Of a stretch of 64,000 bases of DNA, positions 22,170-38,994 are shown piece by piece. A program made the translations under genes and the position numbers. The stretch's first letter is position 1. Each line of letters starts with the position of its first letter. Location of the stretch: IMG/VR virus record IMGVR_UViG_3300047321_000445, positions 33,311 to 97,310 of that record. One strand, given 5' to 3'. Origin of the DNA: a virus. The notes under the pieces were generated by a model. The model did no database searches and had not been told where the DNA came from. It saw nothing but the letters and a program-made list of their open reading frames with translations.

Positions 22170-24293
22170 ATGGCCCGCGTCACCAGCACCACCAACGGCA
22201 AGACCGAGCAGGTCAACACGGCGCAGGCCACGGACCTCGTGCCGGTCGGCAAGGGGGGTGTCGTCTCCCACCTGCTCGGCAAGGCACTGCCGTACGCCTC
22301 TCCGTGGCTCGGCGCCGGTGCACTCCCGCCGCTCGCCGGGCTCGCCACGAACACCATGTGGGGCGACACCGCCGTCCACGCCGGGTTCGCCTCCGCAGGG
22401 CTCGGGATCGGCGGAGCCGTCCTCTCCGCTGTGACCTGGCAGGTTGCCGGGGGGAACAACAAGTTCCGTCGCTTCCGGCGCGCCCAGGCCACCGCGAGCG
22501 TGGCGGCGGGGATGGGCTGGCTGACGGCCGCGACCTCGGCCGGCCCGTTCGGCCACCCCATGATCGACCTGTGGCTGATGGGGGGCGGCCTGTTCGCCGC
22601 CTCCTGGAACATCCGGTCGGTCATGCGGAACGCCCACGACGAGACTGAGCAGGTCGAGGGCAAGAGCGGACTGGGCAAGATCGCTGAGGCGATCGGGCTG
22701 GAGAAGGTGAAGGTCAGGGACGCCAAGGGCAACGGCAAGGGCATGGTGAAGGCGGCCATCGAGGTCGCTCCCGGGGCGACCCTGGACGACGTGCAGGCGG
22801 CTCTCCCGAAGCTGACCGCGGCCCTGCACGTCCCCGGCTCCGGTGCCACCGTCACCAAGGACCTGGAAAACGCTGGTGAGGGCGTCATCAACCTGCGTGT
22901 CGCAGACCTGCTGAAGGACGGAGTCGAGTTCATACCGCCCATCCGGCTGGGCATGCTGCCGAACGAACCGCTGCCGCTCGGCCTGTACGCGGACGGCGAA
23001 GAGTTCATCATCAACCCGTTCGACGCCGAGATCCTCCAGCACCTGCTGGTCATGGGCGTCACCGGCGCAGGCAAGAGCGAGTTCGCCCGCGGCCTGCTCG
23101 CCCACCTGATGACCCGCCGCAAGATGACCGTGATGGTCGTCGACACCGCCAAGGGCCGTCAGTCCATGGGGCACATTGCCCACGGGGTGGACTGGTTCGT
23201 CACCACCACCCGCGAGGCAAAGCACCTGCTCAAGGCCCTGCCCGGGGCCATCCAGGCACGCGGCGACGTCCTCGCGGAAGAGGGCCTGGACCAGTGGACA
23301 CCCAAGTCCAGGCTGAACGCCATGGTGGTCTGGGTCGAAGAGGCCGCCGACCTCGCCGACTTCGCCGAGCTGGACGAGATCGCCCGCAAGGCGCGCTCGG
23401 TCGGCATCTGGCTGGTGATCTCGCTCCAGCGCGCGACCTGGACGAACGTGTCCACCGACGTCCGCGCCAACCTCCAGGCGTCCGCGTGCTTCGGCGTGGA
23501 CACCGCAGGGGACGCCGGATTCGGCCTGCCCGCCCGCGTGACCGACGCAGGCGCCATCCCGGACTGGGGCGCCACCCGACCCGGCTACGCCTTCGCCACC
23601 GGCATGGGAATCCCCGATAACCGCTGGACGATGGAGTGGCGCTCGGGCCTGACCGACCGGGAGTTCCTGTCCGCGCTGGTCACGGCCGCAACACCGTTCC
23701 GTGACCCGCTGGACGACACGACCGCGAAGGCCCTGGGTTTGGCGTACGCGCAGCGCACCCGCCCGGGCACGAACCGGATGAACATGCAGGCCAGCGAGGC
23801 GCAGGAGGCCAGCTCCGCTCAGCAGCTGCTGGCCGCCGCGCACGTGCTGGGCGAGGCACTGGAGGACGCCGGAGTGGACCTGAACAGTCTGCCCACGGGC
23901 AGCGACGACGAGCGCATCGAGGTGGAGATGGAGGACGCATACGCCGAGGTCATGGGCATGATCCCGGACGATCCGGAGCCGGGCGCGCCGTACGCGAACC
24001 TGGATCTGGACGACGACATGCCCGAAGACACCGACACCGGGATGGAGTTCGCGGAGCCCGAGAAGCTTCCGCCTGCGGACGCCCGGCGCCTGCTGCACGA
24101 GCAGCTGCACGAGTGGGCGCAGCGGGACCGGCTCACGTTCCAGCCTGCGGACCTGGCCCCGGTCACGGTCGCAGCCGGCCGGAAGCGGCCGTGGCTCCAG
24201 GGCGAGTTGAAGCGGCTGGTGGAGGCGGGTGTGCTGCGGCACGACTCGCACGGCGAGTACGACATCGTCCAGTCGCCGCTTGTGCCCGCATAG
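22170..24293 (+). CDS. traB: FtsK/SpoIIIE-like conjugative DNA translocase TraB
   Basis: N-terminal TM segments, Walker A GVTGAGKS, VWVEEA, ARKARSVGIWLVISLQRA, C-terminal winged helix. Confidence 0.92.
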   Translation: MARVTSTTNGKTEQVNTAQATDLVPVGKGGVVSHLLGKALPYASPWLGAGALPPLAGLATNTMWGDTAVHAGFASAGLGIGGAVLSAVTWQVAGGNNKFRRFRRAQATASVAAGMGWLTAATSAGPFGHPMIDLWLMGGGLFAASWNIRSVMRNAHDETEQVEGKSGLGKIAEAIGLEKVKVRDAKGNGKGMVKAAIEVAPGATLDDVQAALPKLTAALHVPGSGATVTKDLENAGEGVINLRVADLLKDGVEFIPPIRLGMLPNEPLPLGLYADGEEFIINPFDAEILQHLLVMGVTGAGKSEFARGLLAHLMTRRKMTVMVVDTAKGRQSMGHIAHGVDWFVTTTREAKHLLKALPGAIQARGDVLAEEGLDQWTPKSRLNAMVVWVEEAADLADFAELDEIARKARSVGIWLVISLQRATWTNVSTDVRANLQASACFGVDTAGDAGFGLPARVTDAGAIPDWGATRPGYAFATGMGIPDNRWTMEWRSGLTDREFLSALVTAATPFRDPLDDTTAKALGLAYAQRTRPGTNRMNMQASEAQEASSAQQLLAAAHVLGEALEDAGVDLNSLPTGSDDERIEVEMEDAYAEVMGMIPDDPEPGAPYANLDLDDDMPEDTDTGMEFAEPEKLPPADARRLLHEQLHEWAQRDRLTFQPADLAPVTVAAGRKRPWLQGELKRLVEAGVLRHDSHGEYDIVQSPLVPA

Positions 24294-26150: not shown

Positions 26151-26885
26151 ATGCCGTGGCTCTTGGGCCGGGGAAACAGCGAGCTGGGCGCCGAAGGCAT
26201 CTACCACTGGTCGCTGCCCGCGTGGGTGGTCGAACTCCCGTGGGGTGGCCACTTCAACGTGTGTCCGTCCGCTTCGGCGTGCGCCCCCCTCTGTTACGCC
26301 AGGAAGGGCACTTACCAGTTCTCCAACGTCAAGGCCGCCCACATGCGGAACCTGCTGCTGACCTTGCAGGACCTGCCCGAGTTCGAGCGGCAGATGACTG
26401 AAGAGGTCCAGCACCCCCGCTACCAGGGCGGATACGTCCGCATTCACGACAGTGGGGACTTCCATAGCCAGGACTACCTGGAGGCGTGGCTGCGGATCAT
26501 CCGCTCCGCTAAGGGCGTTCGTTTTTACTGCTATACGAAGGAAGTCGCCCTCTTTCAGGACGTGGTGGAACCCGACCCGCCCGCCAACTTCGGCTGGGTC
26601 TACAGCCTCGGCGGCAAGCAGGACCAGGCCATCGACCTGGCCACCATGCGGCACGCCGACGTGTTCCCCAGCGAGGAAGCGATCGCCTACCACGGCTACG
26701 CCTCGCAAGACGCCTCCGACCTCCTCGCCGTCTACGGCGAAGACCTGCGGGTCGGCATCCCGGCGAACAACATCCCCCAACTGCGCCGCGAGCAAGGCAT
26801 GCAGTCCTTCGGCTCGCTCCAGCGCATCCGCGACAACCAGGCACAGGCCAAGTCCGGCCGGCGCCGCCCTTCCGACCCTGAGTGA
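26151..26885 (+). CDS. Gp88-family protein
   Basis: CPSASACAPLCYA, VRIHDSGDF, FYCYTK; GGGAGG RBS. Confidence 0.85.
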   Translation: MPWLLGRGNSELGAEGIYHWSLPAWVVELPWGGHFNVCPSASACAPLCYARKGTYQFSNVKAAHMRNLLLTLQDLPEFERQMTEEVQHPRYQGGYVRIHDSGDFHSQDYLEAWLRIIRSAKGVRFYCYTKEVALFQDVVEPDPPANFGWVYSLGGKQDQAIDLATMRHADVFPSEEAIAYHGYASQDASDLLAVYGEDLRVGIPANNIPQLRREQGMQSFGSLQRIRDNQAQAKSGRRRPSDPE

Positions 26886-26897
26886 TGAGGACCCCTC

Positions 26898-27701
26898 ATG
26901 CCTGCTGGCTACCTCGAAACCCGCGACGTCCCGATCGCCGACCTCACCCCCTACCCGGGCAACGCGAAGCGGGGCGACGTCGAGGCGATTCGCCGGTCCC
27001 TGACCCGTAACGGCCAGTACCGGTCCCTGATCGTGAGGCAGACCAGCGACGGCGCGCTGATCGTGCTCGCCGGAAACCACACGATGCAGGCCCTCGCCGC
27101 CAACGGCGAACAGACGGCGCGCTGCGAGGTCATCAGCTGCGACGACGCCGAGGCCAAGCGGATCAACCTCGCGGACAACCGGCTGTCGGAGCTGGGCACG
27201 TGGGATGACGGCGCGCTCACCGCGCTGCTGAAGGACGTGCAGGACGACCTGGAAGGCACCGGGTACGGGGCCGACGACCTGGACGAGCTGCTGCAAGCCA
27301 CGGGCGAACTCGCGGCCGGTGCGACGGAGTTCCTGACGGACTTCCTCACCCCGCCCCCGGCTGTGCCCGCCCCCGCGGCCCCGGTCCCTTCGGTCCCTTC
27401 GGCTCCGGGTACTCCCGGCCAGGAGGCGCCGGCTGCGGACACGGCGTCGGACGACACGGGCACCGTCCCGCCCCCGGCCCCGATCACCCCGGCGCAGCCG
27501 TACGAGCCGCCCCCGGCCGTGCCCGCGCCGACCGGGCCACTGGTGACGCCTATCCAGTGGATCGTCACCGTCGAGCAGCGCGACATCATCCGGGCCGCCC
27601 TCAAGCACGCCCAGGAGACGAACGGCCTGGACAACTCCTCCGCCGCCCTCACCGCCGTGTGCGCGGCCTACCTCGAAACCCAGGAGAGCAACCCCTCATG
27701 A
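26898..27701 (+). CDS. ParB/Srx N-terminal domain protein
   Basis: LTPYPGNAK, VLAGNHT, LADNRLSELGTWD. Confidence 0.85.
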   Translation: MPAGYLETRDVPIADLTPYPGNAKRGDVEAIRRSLTRNGQYRSLIVRQTSDGALIVLAGNHTMQALAANGEQTARCEVISCDDAEAKRINLADNRLSELGTWDDGALTALLKDVQDDLEGTGYGADDLDELLQATGELAAGATEFLTDFLTPPPAVPAPAAPVPSVPSAPGTPGQEAPAADTASDDTGTVPPPAPITPAQPYEPPPAVPAPTGPLVTPIQWIVTVEQRDIIRAALKHAQETNGLDNSSAALTAVCAAYLETQESNPS

Positions 27702-28195
27702 GCGAAACCCACGCCTACGGCCACAACCCCATCGACTATGGCCACGACGGTCCCAGCCTGAACATCGTTAACCTGGTCGACGCCATGGAGGCCATCAAGG
27801 TGGACGGTGTCCCCGTCCACGGCGCGGACGCGACCGGGCTGCCGCTGCACTCGAACGGCCACCTGGGTGTCGACATGCTGTCCGTGCCGCCGAACGCGCA
27901 GTTCCCGATCCATACCCACCCGGGCGACCACCTGCTGCTGTGCCTGGAAGGCGAGGGCACCATCACCATCGGCGACGTCACCTACGAGGTGGAGCCGGGC
28001 GACATCTACATGGTGCCCGGCGAGATCCCGCACGCCGTCGGCGCCGGGGGCGCCGGGCACGTCCTGATCGCGACCGGCTCGCCGCACAAGCCCGTCGACT
28101 CCCCGGAACGGATGACGTACACGGACTGGGCGGGCAACCCGACCGGTCGGCCCCTGTTCGTCGACATCGAGGCCGAGCCCGGGTCGGAGTCGTGA
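27698..28195 (+). CDS. Cupin-domain protein
   Basis: PIHTHPGDH...EG...PGDIYMVPGEIPH. Confidence 0.9.
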   Translation: MSETHAYGHNPIDYGHDGPSLNIVNLVDAMEAIKVDGVPVHGADATGLPLHSNGHLGVDMLSVPPNAQFPIHTHPGDHLLLCLEGEGTITIGDVTYEVEPGDIYMVPGEIPHAVGAGGAGHVLIATGSPHKPVDSPERMTYTDWAGNPTGRPLFVDIEAEPGSES

Positions 28196-28977
28196 ACCAG
28201 CGCAAGCAGACACTGCGCGAACAGGACGACTGGGGCAAGCTGCGGGCCCGCGCCCGCGCCGAGTGGCCGGACGACAAGCTCGACAACCTGATCGACCGCA
28301 CGGTGGAGCAGATCAAGGACAGCGTCGGCGGCCGCCGTGCCGCGTACGCCTGGTCCGGTGGCAAGGACTCCATCGCCCTCGGCCACGTCGCCGAGCTCGC
28401 CGGGATCCACGACTGCGTCCTTGGCATCTCGAACCTCGAGTTCCCGGCGTTCCTTCAGTGGGTCACCGACCACATGCCGGACGGGCTGACCGTGGTCAAC
28501 ACCAGCCAGGATCTGCGCTGGCTGGCGAAGAACCCGAACATGCTGTTCCCGCAAGGCGCGTGGGGCCCGAAGTGGTTCACGGCCATCAACCACCGGTCGC
28601 AGGCCCGCTACTACCGGGACGAGAAGCTGGACGTGCTGCTGCTCGGACGGCGCCACTCGGACGGCAACTACACCGGCCCGGCTGGCGCGACCGAGTACAC
28701 CAACGCTCAGGGCATCACCCGCTCCTCGCCGATCGCGCACTGGTCCCACACGGCCGTGTTCGCGCTGATCGACCGGGAGAACCTGCCGATGCCGCCTTGC
28801 TACGACTGGCCGCGCGGCTACCAGGTCGGCACCGGCTCGTGGCCGGCCCGCCAGTGGACCAACAGCATCGACCACGGCTTCGAGGAAGTGTGGGCGATCG
28901 ATCCGGACGTGGTCCGTCAGGCCGCGCCCGTGCTGCCGCAGGCTGCGGACTGGATGGCACGCACCGGCCACGCCTGA
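28192..28977 (+). CDS. PAPS-reductase-family (PP-loop) protein 1
   Basis: AWSGGKDS, LLGRRHSDG, SPIAHW; GTGA overlap. Confidence 0.85.
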   Translation: MNQRKQTLREQDDWGKLRARARAEWPDDKLDNLIDRTVEQIKDSVGGRRAAYAWSGGKDSIALGHVAELAGIHDCVLGISNLEFPAFLQWVTDHMPDGLTVVNTSQDLRWLAKNPNMLFPQGAWGPKWFTAINHRSQARYYRDEKLDVLLLGRRHSDGNYTGPAGATEYTNAQGITRSSPIAHWSHTAVFALIDRENLPMPPCYDWPRGYQVGTGSWPARQWTNSIDHGFEEVWAIDPDVVRQAAPVLPQAADWMARTGHA

Positions 28978-28994
28978 GAAGGGAGCAACAACCC

Positions 28995-29591
28995 GTGTGC
29001 GGGATTTTCGCCTACACCGGGGACGGCGCTCCTGACCGCGAGTTGCTGACCGCCATCACCCGCGCCGCCGCCACCCGAGGGCCGCATGCCCACGGCTGGA
29101 CGGCCGGCGACCAGACACACCGGGCGCTCGGTCCGATGGACGCGGCCGCGGCCGCCCTCGCGTGCCAGGACGCCAGCCGGTGTCTGGGGCACGCGAGGCT
29201 GGCCACCTTCGGCCGGTACGACGACGAGGACGCCATCCAGCCCATCACCGTGAACGGCCACCATGTGGCGTTCAACGGCAACATCTACAACCCGGGCGAC
29301 GTCTACCCGGGCGAGTGGCCTGCCGACACGCACCACCTGGCGCACGCCTACGCCCGCCATCGGGCCGAGCACCCGCCCGGAGCAGCCCTCTCCCTGGCCT
29401 TGCGCCAGGCCGACATGGACGCGGGTGCCGTGGTGGTCCTCGACTCCTCCGGAACCCTCGTCTACTTCCGGCACCGGCTGCCGCTGTTCACCTACCGCAC
29501 CGGCAGCGGCTTCTACCTGGCATCCCGGCGCTTCCACCCCGACGCCGAAGCGGTGCCCGAAAACACTTACGTCCGCGAGGAGCCGCAGTGA
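28995..29591 (+). CDS. Class II (Ntn) glutamine amidotransferase, stand-alone
   Basis: N-terminal (M)CGIF, RGPH, LGHARLA, QP, FNGNIYN. Confidence 0.9.
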   Translation: MCGIFAYTGDGAPDRELLTAITRAAATRGPHAHGWTAGDQTHRALGPMDAAAAALACQDASRCLGHARLATFGRYDDEDAIQPITVNGHHVAFNGNIYNPGDVYPGEWPADTHHLAHAYARHRAEHPPGAALSLALRQADMDAGAVVVLDSSGTLVYFRHRLPLFTYRTGSGFYLASRRFHPDAEAVPENTYVREEPQ

Positions 29592-30910
29592 GACAGTCGT
29601 CCGCGCCGTATGTCCACAAGAAAGTGACCCTCGACCGGGTGGACGTGGCCACCGACGTCTACACCCTCGCCTGCGAGCGCATGGCGTACGTGATGGACAA
29701 CTTCGACCGGGTACAGGTGCTGTTCTCGGGCGGCAAGGACTCGACTGCCGTCCTGAACGTCGCTCTCGCGGTCGCCCACTCCGATCCGCGGTTCGCCCGG
29801 CACCTGCCGCTGCGGGTGATCTTCTGGGACGAGGAGGCCATCCCGCAGGAGACCGCCGACTACGTGGCCCGCGTCGCAGCCCGCGACGACGTGGCGATGG
29901 AGTGGCTGTGCCTGCCGGTCCAGCACCGCAACGCGTGCTCTCGCGAACACCCGTACTGGTGGCCGTGGGCCCCGGAGGACGAAGCGAAGTGGTGCCGTCC
30001 GCTCCCGGAGCAGGCCATCACCCACGTGGACGGCTTCGAGACGTGGCCGCCCGAGAAGCGCATGTCCATCCCGGACATGTCGGGGCTGATGGCCCCGGCG
30101 CCGTACACCACGGCCGCCCTGATGGGCATCCGTGCGCAGGAGTCCCTGATCCGTACCCGGGCGGTCACCCGCCGCGCGGTCGACAACTACATCGTCTACC
30201 ACTCCGGGTCAAAGACGAACCAGGGCAACCTGTACAAGGCGTACCCGGTCTACGACTGGCGCACCGAGGACGTGTGGGCTGCGACCCGCAAGTTCGGCTG
30301 GGACTACAACAAGGCGTACGACCTGCTGGAGATGGCGGGTGTCGGCCCGAGTCTCCAGCGCTGTTCGCCCGCGTTCGGCGAGGAACCCCTCCAGAAGATC
30401 CACACGTACGCGCAGTGCTTCCCCGAGGTGTGGGGAAAGATGGCCGAACGCGTCCCCGGCATCGGCGCCGCCCAGCGCTACGCGCTCACCGAGCTGTACG
30501 CCTACCGGGACCGGCCCGACAAGCCCGCAGGCATGCCCTGGCCGGACTTCGTGACGCACTACGTGGCCAAGTTCCGGCCGGAAGACCAGCGGATGATCGC
30601 CGCTCGCCTCCGTGAGGAGATGACGAGCCACTACAAGAAGACCCGCGACCCGATCGTCTACAAGATGCCGCACCCGAACACGGGCATCTGCTGGCACTTC
30701 CTCCTGACCCTCGCGATGCGCGGCGACTTCAAGAAGCGCAAGCAGGCCGGGGCCCGCCTGAACAAGCCGGCCGCCCAGCTGTGGGCCGCCTACATCGCCG
30801 AGGTCGCCGAGATCGGCCAGGCCGGAACAGAGGCCGAGTACGCCCACCCGTTCGCCTGGCCCGCCGACCCGATCGCTCTCGTGCCCGAGAACGTCGACCT
30901 GATCCACTGA
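29588..30910 (+). CDS. PAPS-reductase-family protein 2 (IbrA/YbdN-like)
   Basis: FSGGKDS, FWDEEA, GIRAQES, YPVYDW. Confidence 0.9.
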   Translation: MRQSSAPYVHKKVTLDRVDVATDVYTLACERMAYVMDNFDRVQVLFSGGKDSTAVLNVALAVAHSDPRFARHLPLRVIFWDEEAIPQETADYVARVAARDDVAMEWLCLPVQHRNACSREHPYWWPWAPEDEAKWCRPLPEQAITHVDGFETWPPEKRMSIPDMSGLMAPAPYTTAALMGIRAQESLIRTRAVTRRAVDNYIVYHSGSKTNQGNLYKAYPVYDWRTEDVWAATRKFGWDYNKAYDLLEMAGVGPSLQRCSPAFGEEPLQKIHTYAQCFPEVWGKMAERVPGIGAAQRYALTELYAYRDRPDKPAGMPWPDFVTHYVAKFRPEDQRMIAARLREEMTSHYKKTRDPIVYKMPHPNTGICWHFLLTLAMRGDFKKRKQAGARLNKPAAQLWAAYIAEVAEIGQAGTEAEYAHPFAWPADPIALVPENVDLIH

Positions 30911-30942
30911 CCCGCCCTCACCAGAAACCCGGTGATCCCCTC

Positions 30943-31491
30943 ATGACCGACCCCACCCCGACGGTCCCGGCCACTCCGGTCGGCGCCGACGCGCAGCCCC
31001 TCGCGAACATTCAGTGGATGCCGCGCGAGGCGCTGTCCGCGAACGACTGGAACCCGAACGTCCAGGCGCCGCCCGAGCACCGGCTGTTGGCCACCAGCAT
31101 CCTGGAGAACGGCTGGACGCAGCCGATCGTCGCCCGCGAGCAGAACGACGGCACATACGAGATCGTGGACGGCTTCCACCGCTGGACCGTCGCTGGCCGG
31201 CCTGCGGTCGCCGCCCTCACCGACGGGCTCGTGCCCGTGGTGGTGTTGCCGCCGACCGACCCGGCGACGGCGCGCATGGCGACCGTCCGCCACAACCGGG
31301 CACGCGGCACCCACCACGTCCTCGGCATGGCCGGGATCGTGGACGACCTGCTGAAGCTGAACATCTCGCCGGCCGAGATCAGCCGCCGTCTGGAGATGGA
31401 CCCCGAGGAAGTTGACCGGCTCGCCGACCGGGGCAACATGCTCAAGCGGCACGCCCCGGACGGCTTCAACAAGGGATGGACCGTCGCATGA
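30943..31491 (+). CDS. ParB/Srx protein (IbrB/YbdM-like)
   Basis: ANDWNPN, GWTQPIV, IVDGFHR, ATVRHNRARG. Confidence 0.9.
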   Translation: MTDPTPTVPATPVGADAQPLANIQWMPREALSANDWNPNVQAPPEHRLLATSILENGWTQPIVAREQNDGTYEIVDGFHRWTVAGRPAVAALTDGLVPVVVLPPTDPATARMATVRHNRARGTHHVLGMAGIVDDLLKLNISPAEISRRLEMDPEEVDRLADRGNMLKRHAPDGFNKGWTVA

Positions 31492-32960
31492 CCGCCGCCG
31501 TGGACTACGACCGCCTGTACATCAACGGGCAGTGGCAGAAGCCGCTGGGGCGGGACCGGATCACCGTCATCAGCCCGGTCACGGAGGCCACGGTCGGCTC
31601 GTGCCCGGCCGGCTCGCCCGCCGACATCGACGCCGCGGTGACGGCCGCGCGCGAGGCGTTCGACTACGGGCCCTGGCCGCGCATGACCCGGGGAGAGCGG
31701 GCCGAAGCGCTCCAGCGCATGGCGTGGCTGTACGCCGACGGCGCGGCCGAGGCTGCCGAGCTGATCACGCTGGAGATGGGCTCGCCGGCCGCGTTCACCG
31801 CCCAGACCCAGCACCCGCGCGACATCTTCGAGTACTACCTCAGCTTGGTCTCCTCCGGGCGGGACCTGTTCGCCGAGCAGCGGGACGGGCACATCGTCAC
31901 CCGCGAACCGGTCGGCGTCTGTGCGCTGATCACGCCGTGGAACATGCCCCACAAGACGATCCTGATGAAGGCGATACCCGCGCTGTTGGCCGGGTGCACG
32001 CTCGTCATCAAGGCGGCCGTCTGGTCCCCGCTGTCGGCTCTGTGGCTCGCCGAGATCGCCGACGCCGCAGGCCTGCCAGCCGGTGTGTTCAACGTGGTTC
32101 CCGCCCGGCCGGACGCCGCCGAGCACCTGGTCGCCCACCCCGGTATCGACAAGATCGCATTCACCGGGTCGACGGCCACCGGTACTCGTATCGCGCAGCT
32201 CGCCGCACGGAACCTGACCCGGGTGTCGCTGGAGCTCGGGGGCAAGTCCGCGATGGTCATCCTCGACGACGCCGACGTGGACGCCGCCCTGCGCAGCGTG
32301 CTGGACAACAGCCTCGCGTGCTCCGGGCAGATCTGCTCGAACCAGACCCGGATCCTGGTCGCCCGCCCGCTGTACGACCAGGTGTGCAGCGCGCTTCAGG
32401 ACATGCTGGCGCTCGACCTGGCCGTGGGGGACCCGGCCGACCCGATGACACAGATCGGGCCGCTGGTGTCCCGCAAGCAGCTCGATCGGGCGCGCGCCGC
32501 GATCCACGCGCACGACACCCCGCCCCGCACGGGCGGCTACCGCCTGAACCGGGCCGGATGGTTCCTCAAGCCGACGCTGTTCACCGACGTCGACCCGGAC
32601 TCCGACCTGTTCAAGACGGAGGTGTTCGCCCCGGTCCTGGCGGTCACACCGTTCTCCAGCGACATGCAGGCCGTGCACCTGGCGAACGCCACCCCGTACG
32701 GGCTGGACGGGTCGGTGTGGTCCGCAAGCGGGGATCGGGCACACACGGTCGCGTCCGGGATCCGCACCGGCATGGTCCACATCAACGGCGCCCCGCACCC
32801 CATCTCGGCGCCGATCGGCGGCTTCAAGGCCTCCGGGATCGGCCGCGAACTCGGCCCGGAAGGGCTGCACGCGTTCACCGAGGTGAAGGCCACCATCACC
32901 GGCCGCGCGGCCGCGCCTGTCCCTGCGGGCATGCACCGCGGCGAGACCGGCGCCTGGTAG
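31488..32960 (+). CDS. Aldehyde dehydrogenase
   Basis: ITPWN, FTGS, LELGGKS, GQIC, EVFAPV. Confidence 0.95.
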   Translation: MTAAVDYDRLYINGQWQKPLGRDRITVISPVTEATVGSCPAGSPADIDAAVTAAREAFDYGPWPRMTRGERAEALQRMAWLYADGAAEAAELITLEMGSPAAFTAQTQHPRDIFEYYLSLVSSGRDLFAEQRDGHIVTREPVGVCALITPWNMPHKTILMKAIPALLAGCTLVIKAAVWSPLSALWLAEIADAAGLPAGVFNVVPARPDAAEHLVAHPGIDKIAFTGSTATGTRIAQLAARNLTRVSLELGGKSAMVILDDADVDAALRSVLDNSLACSGQICSNQTRILVARPLYDQVCSALQDMLALDLAVGDPADPMTQIGPLVSRKQLDRARAAIHAHDTPPRTGGYRLNRAGWFLKPTLFTDVDPDSDLFKTEVFAPVLAVTPFSSDMQAVHLANATPYGLDGSVWSASGDRAHTVASGIRTGMVHINGAPHPISAPIGGFKASGIGRELGPEGLHAFTEVKATITGRAAAPVPAGMHRGETGAW

Positions 32961-32971
32961 AGAACGGGGGG

Positions 32972-33011
32972 AAGGGCGGGCACCCCTCGGGGGAGGGTGC
33001 CCGCCCCTTTT
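32972..33011 (+). terminator. Terminator
   Basis: GGGCGGGCACCC...GGGTGCCCGCCCCTTTT. Confidence 0.75.
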
Positions 33012-33015
33012 CACT

Positions 33016-33426
33016 ATGGCCAATGACCTGAGCGTGGGCGGCGACATGCTCGCCCACCAGAACCTGCTTCCACCCGAGCCCGAGGCCCCCGAAACGGTCG
33101 CCGACTATGCCGCCCTCGCGGACCGGCTGGCCGCCCGCTACCAGCACGCCATGCGCACGTACGACATGCCGGTGCTCATCGAGACGAGCGCCAACCATGC
33201 GGCCTGGCTGGTGTCGTGGGAGCCCGGACAGCGCAGGGACGCCGAGACCCGCCGCGTGTGCCGACTGGTCGCCGTCCTCGACGGCACCCTCACCGAACGC
33301 ACCCCGACCGGTGTCCGGCCCGTGCACCAGCACACCCAACGTTTCCACCCTCCCGGCTGCTGGCCCGAGCTCGTCAACGACACCACCCGCCCGGCCACAG
33401 CCGTACTCATCTACTTCCGGTCCTGA
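33016..33426 (+). CDS. Degenerate cysteine-dioxygenase-like cupin
   Basis: WLVSWEPGQ, VLDGTLTE, LVN..PATAVLIY; His metal ligands are missing. Confidence 0.5.
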   Translation: MANDLSVGGDMLAHQNLLPPEPEAPETVADYAALADRLAARYQHAMRTYDMPVLIETSANHAAWLVSWEPGQRRDAETRRVCRLVAVLDGTLTERTPTGVRPVHQHTQRFHPPGCWPELVNDTTRPATAVLIYFRS

Positions 33427-33453: not shown

Positions 33454-33792
33454 GTGGACGACACCACACCCCTCAGCGACGAAGACCGTGCGAAGGCCAC
33501 GCAGGCCCTGAACCTGCGCCTGGCTGGCGTGGACTGGCACACCATCGCCACCCGCCTCGACTACGCCGACGCGGCCGACGCCCTCGAAGCCGCCACCGAA
33601 GTCGCCGACAGCCAGTACGACGGGCTGCCGATGGACCCGCTCCGCGTGCTGGAGATCCTGCGGTACGACCGGCTTCAGGCGGCTGTATGGCCGTCCGCGA
33701 TGAAGGGCGACCTGGCCGCAGTGGACCGGGCCCTGACGATCGGTGACCGCCGTACGCGCATGCTGCGCCTGAACCAGCGGAGCCGGGATTGA
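33454..33792 (+). CDS. Terminase small subunit-like HTH protein
   Basis: ALNLRLAGVDWHTIATRLDY...RYDRLQAAVW..GDLAAVDRAL. Confidence 0.7.
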   Translation: MDDTTPLSDEDRAKATQALNLRLAGVDWHTIATRLDYADAADALEAATEVADSQYDGLPMDPLRVLEILRYDRLQAAVWPSAMKGDLAAVDRALTIGDRRTRMLRLNQRSRD

Positions 33793-34379
33793 GCAGCCTG
33801 CGCCCCGAACGCGCCGACGGCGACAAGCCCAAGTGCGGCGCACAGAAACGCCAAGGCGCGCCCGGCGAGCTGTGCAGCTTCGTCGCCGGATGGGGAACCG
33901 ATCACGTCGGCACCGGACGGTGCCGGCTGCATGGCGGGAACACCCGCAACCAGCGGGCCGCGGCGAGGACGCAGCTTGCAGAGCAGCAGGCCCGCGCCGT
34001 GCTCGCCACGCTGGAAGTGACCCCGATCGACAACCCGTTCACCGCCCTCGCACGGCTGGCCGGGCAGGCCGTCGCCTGGCAGGACACCATCGCCGGAATC
34101 GTCAACGAGCTCGGCGACCGGATCCGCTACGAAGGCGCGGGCGGCAACGAGCAGCTGCGCGCCGAGATCCAGCTGTACGAGCGCGCGATGGACCGCTGCG
34201 CGCAAGTCCTCGGCACGATCGCCCGCCTGAACATCGAGGACCGCATGGCCCGCGTGTCGGAGAGGCAAGCCGAGATCGTCGTGACCGCGATCGAGGCCGC
34301 CCTCTCGTCCGCTGGCATCACCGGACGGGAGGCCGACGAGGCCCGCAAGGTCGCCGCCCGCCATCTGAGAGCCGTCTGA
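33789..34379 (+). CDS. HGGxSTG-like motif protein, second terminase-small-subunit candidate
   Basis: CGA...GTGRCRLHGG; directly upstream of terL. Confidence 0.65.
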   Translation: MSSLRPERADGDKPKCGAQKRQGAPGELCSFVAGWGTDHVGTGRCRLHGGNTRNQRAAARTQLAEQQARAVLATLEVTPIDNPFTALARLAGQAVAWQDTIAGIVNELGDRIRYEGAGGNEQLRAEIQLYERAMDRCAQVLGTIARLNIEDRMARVSERQAEIVVTAIEAALSSAGITGREADEARKVAARHLRAV

Positions 34380-34422
34380 CCTCCCTGTACGGCCGCCTGT
34401 ACCCCTCGCAGGAGGCGTTCCC

Positions 34423-35922
34423 ATGCTCGCTATCGCTGACCCGCTCGCCATGGCTGCTGACCGGCTGGAGGGCCGTTCTGAGGCTGGCGACCGGTACCCC
34501 ACCCCGCACGATCTGGCCCGCGAACTGGACCCGAAGATCGTGCGCACGCCCGCGCTTGAGCTGCTCGACGAAGTCCTCATCGACTGCGCCGAGGGCCGCA
34601 CGAACCGGCTGATCTTCTCCATGCCCCCGCAGGAGGGCAAGTCGCAGCGCGTCAGCCGCACCTTCCCGGCGTGGCTGCTGTCCCGCGACCCCGACCTGCG
34701 TATCGCCATCGCCTCCTACGAGGCGAACACGGCGCGCCGCTGGGGCCGCGCGGTCCGCAACGACATCAAGGGAAACCCGGACAAGTTCGCGCTGCGGATC
34801 CGCCGAGACACCTCCTCCGCCATTGAGTGGCAGGTCGAGGACCACCAGGGCGGCGTGTACAGCGTCGGTATCGGGGGTGCCCTCACCGGCCGCCCGGTCG
34901 ACGTGTTGATCATTGACGACCCGGTCAAGGGCCGTGCACAGGCCGAATCGGAGACGTTCCGGCAGGCCGCATGGGACTTCTGGACCGACACGGCCCGCAC
35001 GCGTTTCGGTCCCAACACCGTCGTTGTCGTGGTCCTCACCCGCTGGCATGAGGACGACCTCGCCGGGCGGCTCCTCGCGCAGGACGTCCGCAAAGAGTGG
35101 CGGTACATCAACATCCCGGCCGAGGCCGACCACGACCCCTACAAGGGGGAGACGGATCCGCTCGGCCGCGAGCCGGGCGAGTTCCTGTTGTCCGCCCGTG
35201 GCCGCACCGCCAAGGACTGGCAGGACACCAGGGACGACGTCGGCTCGCGTACCTGGACGTCGCTGTACCAGGGCCGGCCTGCCCCGGCCGAGGGCGGCCT
35301 GTTCAAACGAGGGGACTGGCGCTGGTACGTCGCCCCGAAGGCGGTCCGCCGCCAGGACGGCACGATGTGGGTCCACGACGCGGACGAGATCATCCAGTCG
35401 TGGGACATGGCGTTCAAAGACACCAAGGGCTCGGACTATGTCGTCGGGCAGGTGTGGGCCCGGTTCGGGGCCAGCGTGTACCTGCTGGACCAGGTCCGTG
35501 ACCGGCTCGACTTCCCGGCCACGCAGCAGGCCGTCAAGGCACTGTCGGCGAAGTGGCCGCAGACGTTCGCAAAGCTCGTCGAAGACAAGGCGAACGGCCC
35601 GGCGATCATCGCCCAGCTTCAGGCGACCGTGCCCGGTCTGATCCCGATCACCCCGAAAGACTCCAAATACGCGCGCGCGTCGGCCGTGGCGCCGTTCGTC
35701 GAAGCGGGAAACGTGTGGCTGCCCGATCCGTCGTTCGCCCCGTGGATCGAAGACTTCGTCTCCGAACTCGGAGGCTTCCCGAACGGCAGCAATGACGACC
35801 AGGTCGACACCACCAGCCAGGCCCTCCAGCGGCTGCTGGCCGGACAGTTCAGCGCCGACCAGGCCATGGACTGGCTCCGCGGCTACGGCAACAACCCGAA
35901 CCCCGAGGGAAGGCAGCAGTGA
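34423..35922 (+). CDS. terL: Terminase large subunit
   Basis: MPPQEGKS, LIIDDPVK, TRWHEDD, SWDMA, EDKANG, DDQVD. Confidence 0.95.
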   Translation: MLAIADPLAMAADRLEGRSEAGDRYPTPHDLARELDPKIVRTPALELLDEVLIDCAEGRTNRLIFSMPPQEGKSQRVSRTFPAWLLSRDPDLRIAIASYEANTARRWGRAVRNDIKGNPDKFALRIRRDTSSAIEWQVEDHQGGVYSVGIGGALTGRPVDVLIIDDPVKGRAQAESETFRQAAWDFWTDTARTRFGPNTVVVVVLTRWHEDDLAGRLLAQDVRKEWRYINIPAEADHDPYKGETDPLGREPGEFLLSARGRTAKDWQDTRDDVGSRTWTSLYQGRPAPAEGGLFKRGDWRWYVAPKAVRRQDGTMWVHDADEIIQSWDMAFKDTKGSDYVVGQVWARFGASVYLLDQVRDRLDFPATQQAVKALSAKWPQTFAKLVEDKANGPAIIAQLQATVPGLIPITPKDSKYARASAVAPFVEAGNVWLPDPSFAPWIEDFVSELGGFPNGSNDDQVDTTSQALQRLLAGQFSADQAMDWLRGYGNNPNPEGRQQ

Positions 35923-36278
35923 CCACCGAGCCTGAGCCTGTCGAACAGCCCGCTTTCTGCACGCACCGGCCGCTGCCGGGCCAGCTCCTGACGGCCGGCT
36001 GTCCGGACTGCGGGCACGCGTTGATCGTGCACATCGGAGTGGAGCACTGCCCCGTGTGCGAGATGCAGCACCTCAACCAGCAGGCCCGCGCCGCCACGGT
36101 CACGTGGGATCAGGTCGTGCGGGGCGAGGTCAGCATCAACGCGTACCGGGCCGCTCGCGGACTGCCGCCCGCACCGGCCGGGATCGTCGGTCTGTCCGAC
36201 CGGGAAGTCGACGCCGCCGTGGAACGCATCCTCGTCCGTGTCGGCCGCTCCCGCTCCCTGCGCCGCCCGTACACCTGA
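35919..36278 (+). CDS. Hypothetical Zn-finger protein
   Basis: CPDCGH...HCPVC; GTGA overlap. Confidence 0.6.
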   Translation: MTTEPEPVEQPAFCTHRPLPGQLLTAGCPDCGHALIVHIGVEHCPVCEMQHLNQQARAATVTWDQVVRGEVSINAYRAARGLPPAPAGIVGLSDREVDAAVERILVRVGRSRSLRRPYT

Positions 36279-36306
36279 CCCCCCCTTACGCAGGAATGGA
36301 GGCGCC

Positions 36307-38994
36307 GTGCCCCGCTGGAACCCCTTCCGTCGCACCGTCGAGCAGCCTGACACCACCAAGGCCGCCCCCCAGGTGCCGGCCGGGGCGCAGACGTTCACCG
36401 CAACCCAGGTCACGGCGCTCCTCGGCTCGGTCACCGCCAACCCCACCGGCGTCCTCAACCCGCTGCCGCGCACGGATCCGATGGTGGCGTTCGGGCCGGG
36501 TGTGCCGGTGTTCCCTGCGGCGATCGACCCGCTGCGCCCGGACTCGGGCCGCCCCGAGCCGCGGCTGACCGAATACCAGGTGTCGACCAACCTGCCGGGC
36601 GTCAGCGACAGGTTGGTGCCCTGGAAGGTGCTGCGGGACGCGGCCGAGCACGGCGGCCTCCCGCGCCGCTGTATCGAGATCCGCAAGAACGAAGTGTCGA
36701 CGTTGGCGTGGACGGTCACGATCACCCAGGGCGCGGTGGAGAAGGCGCAGGCCGACAACCCCGGCCAGTCGCGTGCCGACGTGGAAGCCGAACTCGGCAA
36801 ACGACTCGGCCCGCACATCGCGCGCTGCACCGCGTTCTGGGAGCAGCCGAACGTGCGCGAAGGCGAGTATTTCGCCGAGTGGGTCAGCAAGGTCCTTGAG
36901 GAACACCTCGTGTTGGACGCGCTCGCGATCTATCCCCGCTACACCTACGGCGGCGACCTGCACTCGCTGGAGGTCATCGACGGGTCCACGATCAAGCCGT
37001 TGCGGGACCACTCCGGTGGCCGCCCGCAGCCCCCGAACCCCGCCTACCAGCAACTGCTGTGGGGCTTCCCTCGAGGCGAGTTCCTCGCCGACGTGGACCC
37101 TGAAGGGCAGATCCTCAACGGGTACCGGTCGGATCAGCTCATCTACAAGCGGCGCAACGTCCGGACGTGGACCCAGTACGGGTACTCGGCTGTCGAGCAG
37201 GCCCTTGAGGACGTCGATGTATGGCTGCGCCGACGGGGCTGGATCCGAGCCGAGTACACCGACGGCGCCGTGCCCCGCGGCCTGCTGAAGCAGGTCAACG
37301 GCGGGCCCGGGTGGACACCGGGGCAGGTCCTCGACTACGAGCGGGGCCTGAACGACGCCTACGGCGGACAGACCGGCGAACGGCACCGGCTGCGCGTCCT
37401 GCCGCCCGGGATGGAGCTCCAGACCCAGGCCGACGTGGCGGAGCGCTACCGCCCCGAGTACGACCTGTTCCTGATCAAGGCGATAGCCGCGCACTTCGAC
37501 GTCACGATCGCCGAACTCGGGTACACCGAGCAGGGCGGTCTCGGGTCCACGGGCTGGCACGAGGGACAGGCGGCCGTTGAACAGCGCAAGGGCACCATGC
37601 CGACGACGCGCTGGTTGCAGCAGCTCATCACCGCCATCAGTCGCCGCCACCTCGGCATGCCGCCCGAGCTGGAGTTTCGGTTCCTCGGGCTGGAGGAGGA
37701 AGACGAGGCGTCGGCTGACCAGGTCGCCGAGAACCGCGTCAAGTCCGGTCGCATGACCTACAACGAGGACCGGGACCGGATGGGCTTGCCCCGCTTCAAC
37801 TTCCCCGAAGCGGACATGCCGATGATCCACGGCTACAGCGGCGTGATCTTCGTGGAAGGCGCCAGCAAACTTGCGGCGGGCGGCGAAGCCGTCAACCCCG
37901 TCACGGGACCGAAGCTGAACGACGCGGACGGCGACGGCAGTATCGACGCCCCCGCAGGGCCCGACAGCGACGTCAACGGCTCGAACCCCGAGAAGCCGGC
38001 CGACGACGGGAGTGGCCAGGCCGACGCGGTCAAGACCGAACTGGCCGCCTACCGGCGCTGGGCCCGAAAGAACCCGACACCGGCGCGGCCGTTCGTCTTC
38101 CAGACCGTCACCAAGGCCGACGCCCCCGACCTGGCCGGGCAGGCAGTCGTCTACGCGGCAGGTGATGACAGCCCAAAAGCCGGTGACGGCCCCGCCCACT
38201 GGCAGGGCTGGGACCGCGACCAGGACACCGCCGACGTGTGGGCGGGCCGCATCCAGCGGGCCCTCACCGCGGCGGTCAACGTCGACCAGCTCGCGGAACG
38301 CTGGCTCGCGCAGGAACTCGTCAAGGCCGACGAGCCCGACGTGGCCGGCGAACTGCAACAGCCCGAGGACGACAGCCACCTTGGCGAGTTCGCGGCCGCC
38401 CTCGCGGCGGCATGGCTCACCGCCCAAGGCATCGACCTGACCGCCACGATGGCCAGTCTCCTCACCGGCATCTGGACCGAAGGATGGGCCATCGGCGCCT
38501 CCGCTGCCCGCGCCCTCATGGACCGGGGCCGGGCGCTGTTCCCATGGCGGCGAGGCAGCCACGAGGACGCCGCGCGGACCCTCACCACACAGTCCGCTGA
38601 CGACCTGGGCACCTTCCGCAGTCGCAACGCCAGCGACGCGCAGACCCTCGCCCGTGGCCGGATGCACGCCCTGGCCAAGACACTGGCCCGGGCCCGCTCG
38701 GAAGGCTGGACCGCCCGGCAACTCGCTGCGCAACTCCGGGGTGTCCTGCGGGATGAGTCGTGGGCGCGACGGACTGCGCTGACCGAGCTCAGCCGCGCGT
38801 CCACCGAGGCCGCCCGCGACGTCTACACCACGGCCGGCCTGACCAGGTGGCTGTGGCACACCGAGCCGGGCGCCTGCCCCGTGTGCCTCGCCAACGAGGC
38901 CGCAGGCCCCCGCGCGTCCGGCGAGACGTGGCCTGACGGATCACAGGCCCCGCCCGCTCACCCGAACTGCCGGTGCACCCTCATTCCGGCCTGA
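36307..38994 (+). CDS. Portal protein fused to a MuF-like head morphogenesis domain
   Basis: LEVIDGSTIKP, YGYSAVE, MTYNEDR..MGL; C-terminal CPVC...PPAHPNCRC. Confidence 0.9.
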   Translation: MPRWNPFRRTVEQPDTTKAAPQVPAGAQTFTATQVTALLGSVTANPTGVLNPLPRTDPMVAFGPGVPVFPAAIDPLRPDSGRPEPRLTEYQVSTNLPGVSDRLVPWKVLRDAAEHGGLPRRCIEIRKNEVSTLAWTVTITQGAVEKAQADNPGQSRADVEAELGKRLGPHIARCTAFWEQPNVREGEYFAEWVSKVLEEHLVLDALAIYPRYTYGGDLHSLEVIDGSTIKPLRDHSGGRPQPPNPAYQQLLWGFPRGEFLADVDPEGQILNGYRSDQLIYKRRNVRTWTQYGYSAVEQALEDVDVWLRRRGWIRAEYTDGAVPRGLLKQVNGGPGWTPGQVLDYERGLNDAYGGQTGERHRLRVLPPGMELQTQADVAERYRPEYDLFLIKAIAAHFDVTIAELGYTEQGGLGSTGWHEGQAAVEQRKGTMPTTRWLQQLITAISRRHLGMPPELEFRFLGLEEEDEASADQVAENRVKSGRMTYNEDRDRMGLPRFNFPEADMPMIHGYSGVIFVEGASKLAAGGEAVNPVTGPKLNDADGDGSIDAPAGPDSDVNGSNPEKPADDGSGQADAVKTELAAYRRWARKNPTPARPFVFQTVTKADAPDLAGQAVVYAAGDDSPKAGDGPAHWQGWDRDQDTADVWAGRIQRALTAAVNVDQLAERWLAQELVKADEPDVAGELQQPEDDSHLGEFAAALAAAWLTAQGIDLTATMASLLTGIWTEGWAIGASAARALMDRGRALFPWRRGSHEDAARTLTTQSADDLGTFRSRNASDAQTLARGRMHALAKTLARARSEGWTARQLAAQLRGVLRDESWARRTALTELSRASTEAARDVYTTAGLTRWLWHTEPGACPVCLANEAAGPRASGETWPDGSQAPPAHPNCRCTLIPA

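Follow-up and report, generated by a model that had tools for sequence, protein, structure and literature searches.

The DNA analysed here, called the window throughout, is a stretch of 64,000 nucleotides comprising bases 33311-97310 of the 97.3-kb virus record IMGVR_UViG_3300047321_000445 from IMG/VR (linear, 89% complete). The window is a Streptomyces-type prophage, and just ahead of its DNA-packaging genes it carries a cassette of genes for predicted enzymes and ParB-like proteins, which is the subject of this work. Because spurious open reading frames (ORFs) are common at a G+C content of about 70%, as found in the window, genes were called from a frame plot of the G+C content at third codon positions (GC3) together with a survey of start codons. 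According to these, nine genes on the plus strand (g1 to g9) exactly fill positions 26151-33426. Stop and start codons overlap by 4 nt at the g2/g3, g3/g4 and g5/g6 junctions and by 4 or 16 nt at g7/g8, depending on which ATG starts g8; the remaining intergenic gaps within g1-g9 measure 12-55 nt. The original prediction, made from the letters of the window alone, had described nine tightly coupled genes before the terminase and had named their domains, and here the frame plot and the profile searches agree with it. It had also taken them for one nine-gene pathway, a view that has to be narrowed: the conserved unit consists of the seven genes g2-g8, and the GP88-family gene g1 as well as g9 are lineage-specific neighbours. 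A megablast search with the cluster against deposited phages gave no match.

Two genes of the conserved unit code for PP-loop enzymes of the PAPS-reductase family and two for ParB-like proteins. The product of g4 (28192..28977, plus strand) is a short PAPS-reductase-family PP-loop ATP pyrophosphatase (PAPS_reduct 4.1e-8), which has its PP-loop SGGKDS at residues 55-60. The second enzyme, encoded by g6 (29588..30910, plus strand), is IbrA-like and matches PAPS_reduct (PF01507, 1.1e-9) and DUF3440 (PF11922, 2.2e-6), both above the Pfam cut-offs, as well as phrog_2302 (1.6e-81). The PP-loop motifs of both enzymes are intact. In the AlphaFold2 (AF2) model of g6 (predicted local distance difference test, pLDDT, 82) the PP-loop domain is nearest to the PAPS domain of FAD synthase, APS/PAPS reductase, CysD, LarE and TtuA. 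In the same direction and starting 32 nt past g6 follows g7 (30943..31491, plus strand), encoding the second, IbrB-like ParB protein (ParB_N 5.6e-8; phrog_2159 7.7e-57), in which a ParB_N domain with a DGFHR motif is followed by a helix-turn-helix-like tail. An IbrA/IbrB-like pair had already been suspected from the letters, and the combination of PAPS_reduct and DUF3440 in g6 with an adjacent ParB_N protein, together with both phrog matches, supports this assignment.

The other ParB-like protein is encoded by g2 (26898..27701, plus strand). It has no Pfam match but is recognised by phrog_723 (3.4e-43) and is composed of a ParB N-domain, a proline-rich linker and a small C-terminal domain. It also matches the ParB module that heads phage DNA methyltransferases (phrog_498 1e-26; PADLOC MTase_II 4.7e-12). 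The g2 protein is the probable partner of g4. A single protein of 507 aa from ENA, P0272, joins a g4-type enzyme (46% identity to g4) to a small g2-type ParB (65% identity to the protein of locus L031) and may represent a natural fusion that pairs g4 with g2 in the same way as IbrA is paired with IbrB, although as one sequence it might also result from a merged gene call.

Between the two PP-loop genes lies g5 (28995..29591, plus strand), which codes for a stand-alone class II (N-terminal nucleophile, Ntn) glutamine amidotransferase domain of 198 aa that starts with MCGI (GATase_6 1.8e-6). Across 14 homologues, Cys2, R28-G29, the motif GH.RLAT, N94-G95 and D111 do not vary, so that g5 keeps the same set of Cys2, Arg, Asn-Gly and Asp as the Ntn amidotransferases PurF, GlmS and AsnB. 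The stand-alone amidotransferase proposed earlier is therefore upheld, and judged from this invariant catalytic set it looks like an active glutaminase. When the g5 profile was compared with the PDB, the best scores were obtained for PurF (8.5e-15) and GlmS (2.6e-14), followed by EgtC (1.6e-7) and AsnB (3e-3 to 6e-3). The arrangement nevertheless resembles AsnB in that translation of g5 is coupled to that of a PP-loop enzyme and the two follow the order of the AsnB domains, glutaminase first and synthetase second. The stop of g5 and the start of g6 overlap in the window as well as in loci L002, L003, L005, L006 and L094, and in most co-directional loci the stop of the g5-type gene overlaps or abuts the start of the next IbrA gene. 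In contrast to AsnB the glutaminase stands alone and its presumed partner is of the PAPS-reductase type, not of the Asn_synthase type. The asparagine synthetase architecture that had been invoked for this gene pair does not hold in that form, since g5 is nearer to PurF and GlmS than to AsnB and its PAPS_reduct-type partners have no Asn_synthase-type domain. A scan of viral contigs with g5 alone returned only close relatives that had already been found.

The remaining two genes of the unit encode a cupin and an aldehyde dehydrogenase (ALDH). The metal-binding Cupin_2 protein g3 (27698..28195, plus strand; Cupin_2 7.6e-15) has the invariant histidines H72, H74, H78 and H112. Over about 110 residues it matches PDB entry 9ug7_A (1.3e-22), a protein of 215 aa named 'Cupin type-2 domain-containing protein', with which it shares the metal-binding histidines; a literature search found no paper for 9ug7. 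The product of g8 (31476..32960, plus strand) is an NAD(P)-dependent aldehyde dehydrogenase (Aldedh, PF00171, 4.7e-137) whose closest relatives of known structure are betaine-aldehyde and aminoaldehyde dehydrogenases. Its oxyanion Asn, general-base Glu and catalytic Cys (N156/E253/C287) are invariant in the six ALDHs found in cassettes of this kind.

Further loci were collected with g4, the most conserved gene across the cassette family, as query; the alignment of g5 was too variable for a genome scan. A scan of IMG/VR with g4 yielded 162 relatives, from which 80 loci were kept, and a scan of genomes (one per species) with the g4 alignment yielded 113 relatives, of which 80 were kept. The 160 loci were searched by tblastn with all genes of the window and with genes from distant loci. 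All seven genes follow one another as g2-g3-g4-g5-g6-g7-g8 in the window, in Streptomyces cavernae (L085), in L003, in Actinoallomurus vinaceus (L086) and in the Streptosporangiales genome L175, which came from a separate search with the ALDH; the identities are 52-90%. L006, which is truncated at g4, carries g4-g8 including the ALDH. The stop/start overlaps are conserved across loci as well. Thus, the conserved unit consists of the seven genes g2-g8 and is found in five actinobacterial lineages. Since its order recurs in divergent prophages, the clustering is more than chance, and the genes do co-occur elsewhere, as the original prediction demanded. In a sample of 400 Actinomycetes genomes only one further IbrA-like match was detected.

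A core of four members, namely two PP-loop enzymes and two ParB-like proteins, is found in 155-157 of the 160 loci (g4-type enzyme 160, second PAPS-reductase-like enzyme 157, IbrB-like ParB 155, small g2-like ParB about 148). Normally it lies right before the terminase genes TerS/TerL, as seen in the window and in those collected loci that were inspected. Its hosts include Lachnospiraceae, Oscillospiraceae, Clostridioides difficile, Deinococcus, Bacteroidota, Acidobacteriota and Actinobacteria, and g4 proteins from phages of Actinobacteria and Firmicutes share 42-56% identity with 55 invariant columns. Around this core two architectures can be distinguished. In type A (138/160 loci) a Na+/solute symporter heads the cassette and the second enzyme is of a type termed PAPS2, which shares 22-25% identity with g6 and shows no detectable DUF3440. 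The symporters are nearest to PanF, PutP and ActP (pantothenate, proline and acetate carriers) but score far below the cut-offs of these families. In type B (14/160 loci) there is no symporter; a g5-type glutaminase gene lies between the genes of the two PP-loop enzymes, the second of which is a DUF3440-containing IbrA-type protein 38-70% identical to g6. Altogether a g5-type gene is present in 15 of the 160 loci, 14 of them without a symporter. The exceptions are one locus with both symporter and glutaminase and one IbrA-type locus with neither.

The window belongs to type B, and tblastn detected no homologue of the symporter (SSF) in loci of its type. The g2-g8 unit is hence a rare, importer-less form of a widespread phage late-operon cassette. 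It shares with type A the g4-type enzyme, both types of ParB protein and the place before TerS/TerL, whereas in type A these are joined by a PanF/PutP-like symporter and a PAPS2-type enzyme, and glutaminase, cupin and ALDH are lacking. The actinobacterial type B form adds the histidine cupin g3 and the ALDH g8 together. No published description of the importer-linked type A cassette was found, and the earlier view that the system is undescribed is in line with our literature searches.

Type B loci vary in several respects. The number of IbrA copies differs, with three tandem paralogues in L003 and two each in L030 and L087. Those of L003 (11361-15546) lie behind the glutaminase gene and each consist of about 465 aa with PAPS_reduct and DUF3440. 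In the acidobacterial locus L087 a Cupin_2 gene lies upstream of g4, at a distance of two genes. Furthermore, genes for proteins of about 250 aa without a Pfam or NCBIfam match occur at conserved positions in a Deinococcus locus (L094, 9237-9977) and in an actinobacterial relative (L002, 4583-5353), one of them at the position of the cupin gene of the window and the other at that of the ALDH gene; these may be alternative accessory enzymes.

The cupin and the ALDH travel together within the glutaminase form. The g3-type cupin is present in the window, L085/L005, L003, L086 and L175 and absent from L002/L004, and neither this cupin nor the ALDH occurs in L002/L004 or in non-actinobacterial loci. 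Besides the window, the ALDH gene stands directly behind g7 in L003, L005/L085, L006, L086 and L175 (51-84% identity). The genomes of S. cavernae and Actinoallomurus contain 23 and 16 ALDH matches, respectively, and all copies outside the cassette are at most 47% identical to g8. In other genomes three ALDHs with 49-50% identity to g8 have no cassette nearby. In a tree the six cassette-linked ALDHs fall outside a large host clade, where midpoint rooting yields a grade and not a proven clade. On account of the constant place after g7, the low identity of the host paralogues and the position in the tree, g8 can be assigned by sequence comparison to a cassette-linked ALDH lineage and not to a stray host copy. 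A scan of viral contigs with g8 alone gave only close relatives already found, and 400 sampled Streptomycetaceae genomes contained no further cassette-type ALDH. Matches obtained by tblastn in the collection of deposited 'phages' look like bacterial contamination and are uninformative on phage ALDHs. A phage-borne ALDH appears unusual; within the family, 6 of about 162 cassettes contain one, all of them actinobacterial, which bears out the earlier remark that an ALDH is uncommon in such a cluster.

IbrA and IbrB, after which g6 and g7 are described here, were reportedly named for activating the eib genes of prophages in E. coli ECOR-9. The IbrA/IbrB proteins of the ECOR-9 island, like their K-12 paralogues YbdN/YbdM, likewise consist of a PAPS_reduct and DUF3440 protein adjoining a ParB_N partner. 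In the window, by contrast, the pair is surrounded by further genes, namely a second PP-loop/ParB pair (g4/g2) and the genes of glutaminase, cupin and ALDH. Searches of the literature for IbrA/IbrB, YbdN/YbdM, DUF3440 and PAPS reductase with ParB returned annotations only and no biochemical study. The only data found for YbdNM concern repression by YbdO (PMC9068703).

Relatives of IbrA/IbrB are present in 223 deposited phage records. In phages such genes carry the annotation 'IbrA/IbrB' or 'PAPS reductase + ParB-like nuclease'. In Mycobacterium phage Gaia, gp104 (L183, 7344-8243) is a fusion of an ectoine-synthase-type cupin (PF06339, 1.3e-32) with an IbrB-like ParB, whose ParB half is 38% identical to g7. 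The gene adjoins that of the IbrA protein gp103, and both stand among replication genes. Through this fusion cupins are tied to the IbrA/IbrB pair. The gene of the IbrA-like protein gp158 of Microbacterium phage Hendrix lies at the right genome end (region L181, 6206-9754), directly behind genes annotated as glycosyltransferase, methyltransferase and GNAT acetyltransferase. When scanned, the annotated glycosyltransferase and methyltransferase had no Pfam match. The left end of this phage (L182, 1-2530) contains three ParB-like genes, a gene for a helix-turn-helix protein and the terminase gene.

The two outer genes of the cluster show a different distribution. The first, g1 (26151..26885, plus strand), encodes a GP88-family protein (PF17338, 1.7e-55), which occurs in three of seven actinobacterial loci (window, L085/L005, L003). 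The three-cysteine motif noted earlier proved to be a genuine family trait, with CX5CX3C (C38/C44/C48) following strand 1 and being invariant in 60 homologues. The radical SAM motif CX3CX2C is not matched by this spacing. The AF2 model of GP88 is of high confidence (pLDDT 96). Exhaustive structure alignment gave modest Z scores of 5.5-6.8 over 153-163 residues to viperin, SPL, QueE and EpeE, its best matches being mainly radical SAM enzymes, and Foldseek found nothing at E ≤ 0.001 against the PDB. The model and the cysteine motif together suggest a divergent radical-SAM-like Fe-S enzyme with a partial barrel, these scores alone being no proof of it. GP88 is a very large phage family (PF17338; 2809 clusters at E ≤ 1e-3) and may constitute an unrecognised family of radical-SAM-like Fe-S enzymes of actinophages.

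The last gene, g9 (33016..33426, plus strand), is found in two loci only, the window and S. cavernae, and encodes a degenerate cupin related to cysteine dioxygenase (CDO). It has no Pfam or NCBIfam match, and neither a word-based search nor phmmer against the PDB revealed homologues. By hhalign, however, it aligns to CDO_I, represented by seven host proteins, at 96.9% (E 1.6e-10), and in the ESM Atlas it reaches a template modelling (TM) score of 0.76 to CDO clusters. The HDH motif of host CDO_I proteins is replaced by AET in g9 of the window and by RQD in S. cavernae, and the third histidine by proline. Since all three metal-binding histidines are replaced, g9 is unlikely to be a dioxygenase, and this role was discarded. 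The CDO-like fold that had been recognised from the letters is thus retained, while an oxidation catalysed by g9 is unlikely.

Downstream of the cassette the packaging genes g10, g11 and g12 (33454..35922, plus strand) begin at 33454 (phrog_645), 33789 (TerS-like) and 34423 (TerL; Terminase_6N/6C), which places the cassette at the start of the late operon. TerL of the window shares 58% identity with that of Brevibacterium phage LuckyBarnes. Further downstream of TerL, an ORF of 918 aa (window 36238-38994) contains a Phage_portal domain and a C-terminal Mu F-like domain and thus represents a portal-MuF fusion. About 2 kb upstream of the late operon an FtsK/SpoIIIE-type (TraB-like) protein of 707 aa is encoded (window 22170-24293). 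Its presence in a record classed as viral suggests genes of a conjugative element beside or inside the prophage.

Known routes of DNA modification were compared with the cassette. DndB/DndC, and likewise SspB/SspD and BrxP of BREX type 4, also combine a PAPS-reductase-family PP-loop enzyme with a protein of the ParB superfamily that acts on DNA, and g6 gives a weak local match to DndC models (PADLOC 3e-7). A sulfur transfer as catalysed by DndC, which had been one of the options considered for the cluster, was nevertheless rejected. The DndC equivalog model TIGR03183 reaches 22.2 bits on g6 over a local match only, the cut-off being 290.4. Only two cysteines (C108, C117) are conserved among IbrA relatives, and this within type B only; both are absent from gp158 of Hendrix and partly from the Gaia and PAPS2-type proteins, so that a conserved Fe-S cysteine set, as expected of DndC with its [4Fe-4S] cluster and cysteine dyad, is absent. 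No cysteine desulfurase (PF00266) was detected in the 97-kb record, where host IscS could substitute. Moreover, DndD and DndE were not noticed here, and the glutaminase points to nitrogen instead of sulfur. The 7-deazaguanine toolkit (QueE, QueC/Gat-QueC, DpdA/DpdB) shares several superfamilies with the cluster, namely radical-SAM-like proteins such as GP88, PP-loop ATPases, a glutaminase and ParB-like partners. It differs in that the PP-loop enzymes of the window belong to the PAPS_reduct family and in that GP88 is no conserved member; FolE and QueD were not searched for. This route was rejected too, as no TGT/DpdA (PF01702) was found in the record (97 kb, 89% complete) and neither g4 nor g6 matched QueC at E ≤ 0.01, PAPS_reduct being their only match. 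The record also contains no N6 or N4 methyltransferase.

Our preferred reading, which we put forward tentatively and a little short of probable, is that the cassette transfers nitrogen from glutamine to phage DNA in a reaction that depends on adenylation and is guided by the ParB proteins, while cupin and ALDH prepare a carboxylate as co-substrate. The PP-loop enzymes would use ATP to adenylate an oxygen of the substrate. In type B, ammonia released from glutamine by g5 would then displace the AMP; in type A the displacement would be by, or onto, an imported compound. A nitrogen-bearing group would be left. The ParB proteins would bring the enzymes onto phage DNA at about the time of packaging, and virion DNA marked in this way would escape host restriction. 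The carboxylate which other phages take up would here be made from a host metabolite by cupin g3 and ALDH g8, with an aldehyde as the intermediate, and GP88 as well as the presumably metal-less, CDO-like g9 would be optional neighbours. What is shown are the gene content, its conservation and the intact catalytic residues; the substrate, the product and DNA as the target are inferred.

Several observations lead to this proposal. An importer takes the place of the glutaminase in other cassettes, which suggests that the pathway makes or supplies a co-substrate. The idea of a carboxylate is based on the carboxylate carriers as nearest relatives of the symporters, on the formation of carboxylates by ALDHs and on the aminoaldehyde and betaine-aldehyde dehydrogenases as nearest relatives of g8. 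A link to DNA is suggested because g2-type ParB modules head phage DNA methyltransferases and because the cassette lies directly before TerS/TerL; delivery to DNA and evasion of restriction are likewise deduced from the ParB domains and the gene position. The pairing of enzymes with ParB proteins draws on the P0272 fusion and on Gaia gp104 beside IbrA. More specifically, the system might be a new class of phage DNA modification, in which ParB-loaded PAPS-reductase-type enzymes adenylate a site on DNA (a side-chain carboxylate or a backbone or base oxygen) and nitrogen replaces AMP, the nitrogen being derived from glutamine in type B and from an imported amino-acid-like compound in type A, and cupin and ALDH building the co-substrate inside the cell in Actinobacteria. 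In this detailed form we consider the proposal doubtful.

A number of points weigh against a nitrogen transfer to DNA. The tie to DNA is indirect, and ParB/Srx domains have other roles too, in nucleotide binding and in the regulation of transcription. The mutual exclusion of glutaminase and symporter follows phylogeny (gut Firmicutes versus soil phyla) and is therefore not independent evidence but suggestive, and one locus has both genes. Most type B loci contain the glutaminase without cupin or ALDH, which are hence not essential. The nearest solved relatives of g6 (FAD synthase, CysD, APS/PAPS reductase) act on phosphate or sulfate of small molecules and not on carboxylates or DNA. Together with LarE and the ATP sulfurylase function of CysD, these fold neighbours would suit a pathway for a free metabolite or nucleotide, such as a modified nucleotide, cofactor or signal needed late in infection, for example for blunting host defence, with the ParB/Srx proteins as nucleotide-binding subunits. 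Such a pathway would also account for the solute importer of type A and for ALDH and cupin of type B, which are typical of small-molecule metabolism, for free aldehydes being the substrates of ALDH active sites, and for PurF and GlmS as nearest relatives of the glutaminase. It is less easily reconciled with two separate ParB-like proteins in nearly every cassette, with the helix-turn-helix-like tail of g7 and the methyltransferase-heading relatives of g2, or with the fixed position before the terminase, which is more typical of late functions directed at DNA; we regard it as rather unlikely. The arrangement in Hendrix, where an IbrA-like gene lies beside glycosyl-, methyl- and acetyltransferases, fits a target other than DNA equally well. 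A capsid, tail or cell-envelope component could be decorated instead, and judged from the layout the cassette is co-transcribed with structural genes. But the cluster in the window has no glycosyltransferase or acyltransferase, the constant partners are ParB-like DNA or nucleotide proteins, and the Hendrix annotations lack Pfam support, which makes modification of a virion protein or glycan very improbable.

IbrA/IbrB are said to have been described originally by genetics as activators of prophage gene expression, namely of eib in ECOR-9, which likewise speaks against a modification of DNA. The ParB-containing pairs could accordingly be co-activators of late genes or helpers of the terminase, acting as clamps or nickases near pac or cos, while the other enzymes tune a nucleotide ligand. 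The position of the cassette before TerS/TerL in the loci examined and the succession of ParB-like genes, helix-turn-helix protein and terminase in Hendrix agree with such a role. However, it hardly explains why a glutaminase, an ALDH, a metal cupin and between two and four PP-loop enzymes should all retain their catalytic residues, and the Gaia pair lies among replication genes, away from the terminase, so that we consider this explanation unlikely. A unitary function might also be dispensed with altogether if ALDH, cupins and GP88 were morons or auxiliary metabolic genes inserted by chance beside an IbrA/IbrB module. GP88, a member of a large independent family of 2809 clusters, occurs in three loci and g9 in two, and the ALDH is missing from most cassettes. 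For g1 and g9 this mosaic origin holds. For g3 and g8 it is argued against by their positions, which are kept in five lineages although the ALDHs are only 51-60% identical between lineages, by the overlap of the g7 stop with the g8 start, by the joint presence or absence of cupin and ALDH, and by the restriction of the ALDH lineage to places beside cassettes among the contexts examined. As an account of the cassette as a whole, chance insertion thus has little likelihood.

Returning to the proposed transfer of nitrogen to phage DNA, the cassette family offers a natural experiment, in which the same core occurs with an importer in gut phages and with a glutaminase, in part with cupin and ALDH, in soil Actinobacteria, Deinococcus and Acidobacteria. 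The contrast narrows the missing co-substrate to a nitrogen-bearing compound that is probably linked to a carboxylate. While the kind of cassette is widespread but uncharacterised, its ALDH-bearing actinobacterial form and the evidence from fusions are new here. Culturable hosts for direct chemistry exist in Streptomyces cavernae, Actinoallomurus vinaceus, Thermomonospora cellulosilytica and Actinomadura miaoliensis. If the product were a mark on DNA, it would represent a new anti-restriction modification as well as a new enzymatic route to modified DNA, and the first PP-loop-based DNA modification other than phosphorothioation. 'PAPS reductase/cysH' and 'ParB-like nuclease' are among the most frequent annotations in viromes and are routinely counted as sulfur auxiliary metabolism. 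The proposed function, if true, would explain the very common phage genes of the 'cysH/PAPS reductase' kind that are labelled as sulfur metabolism in viromics.

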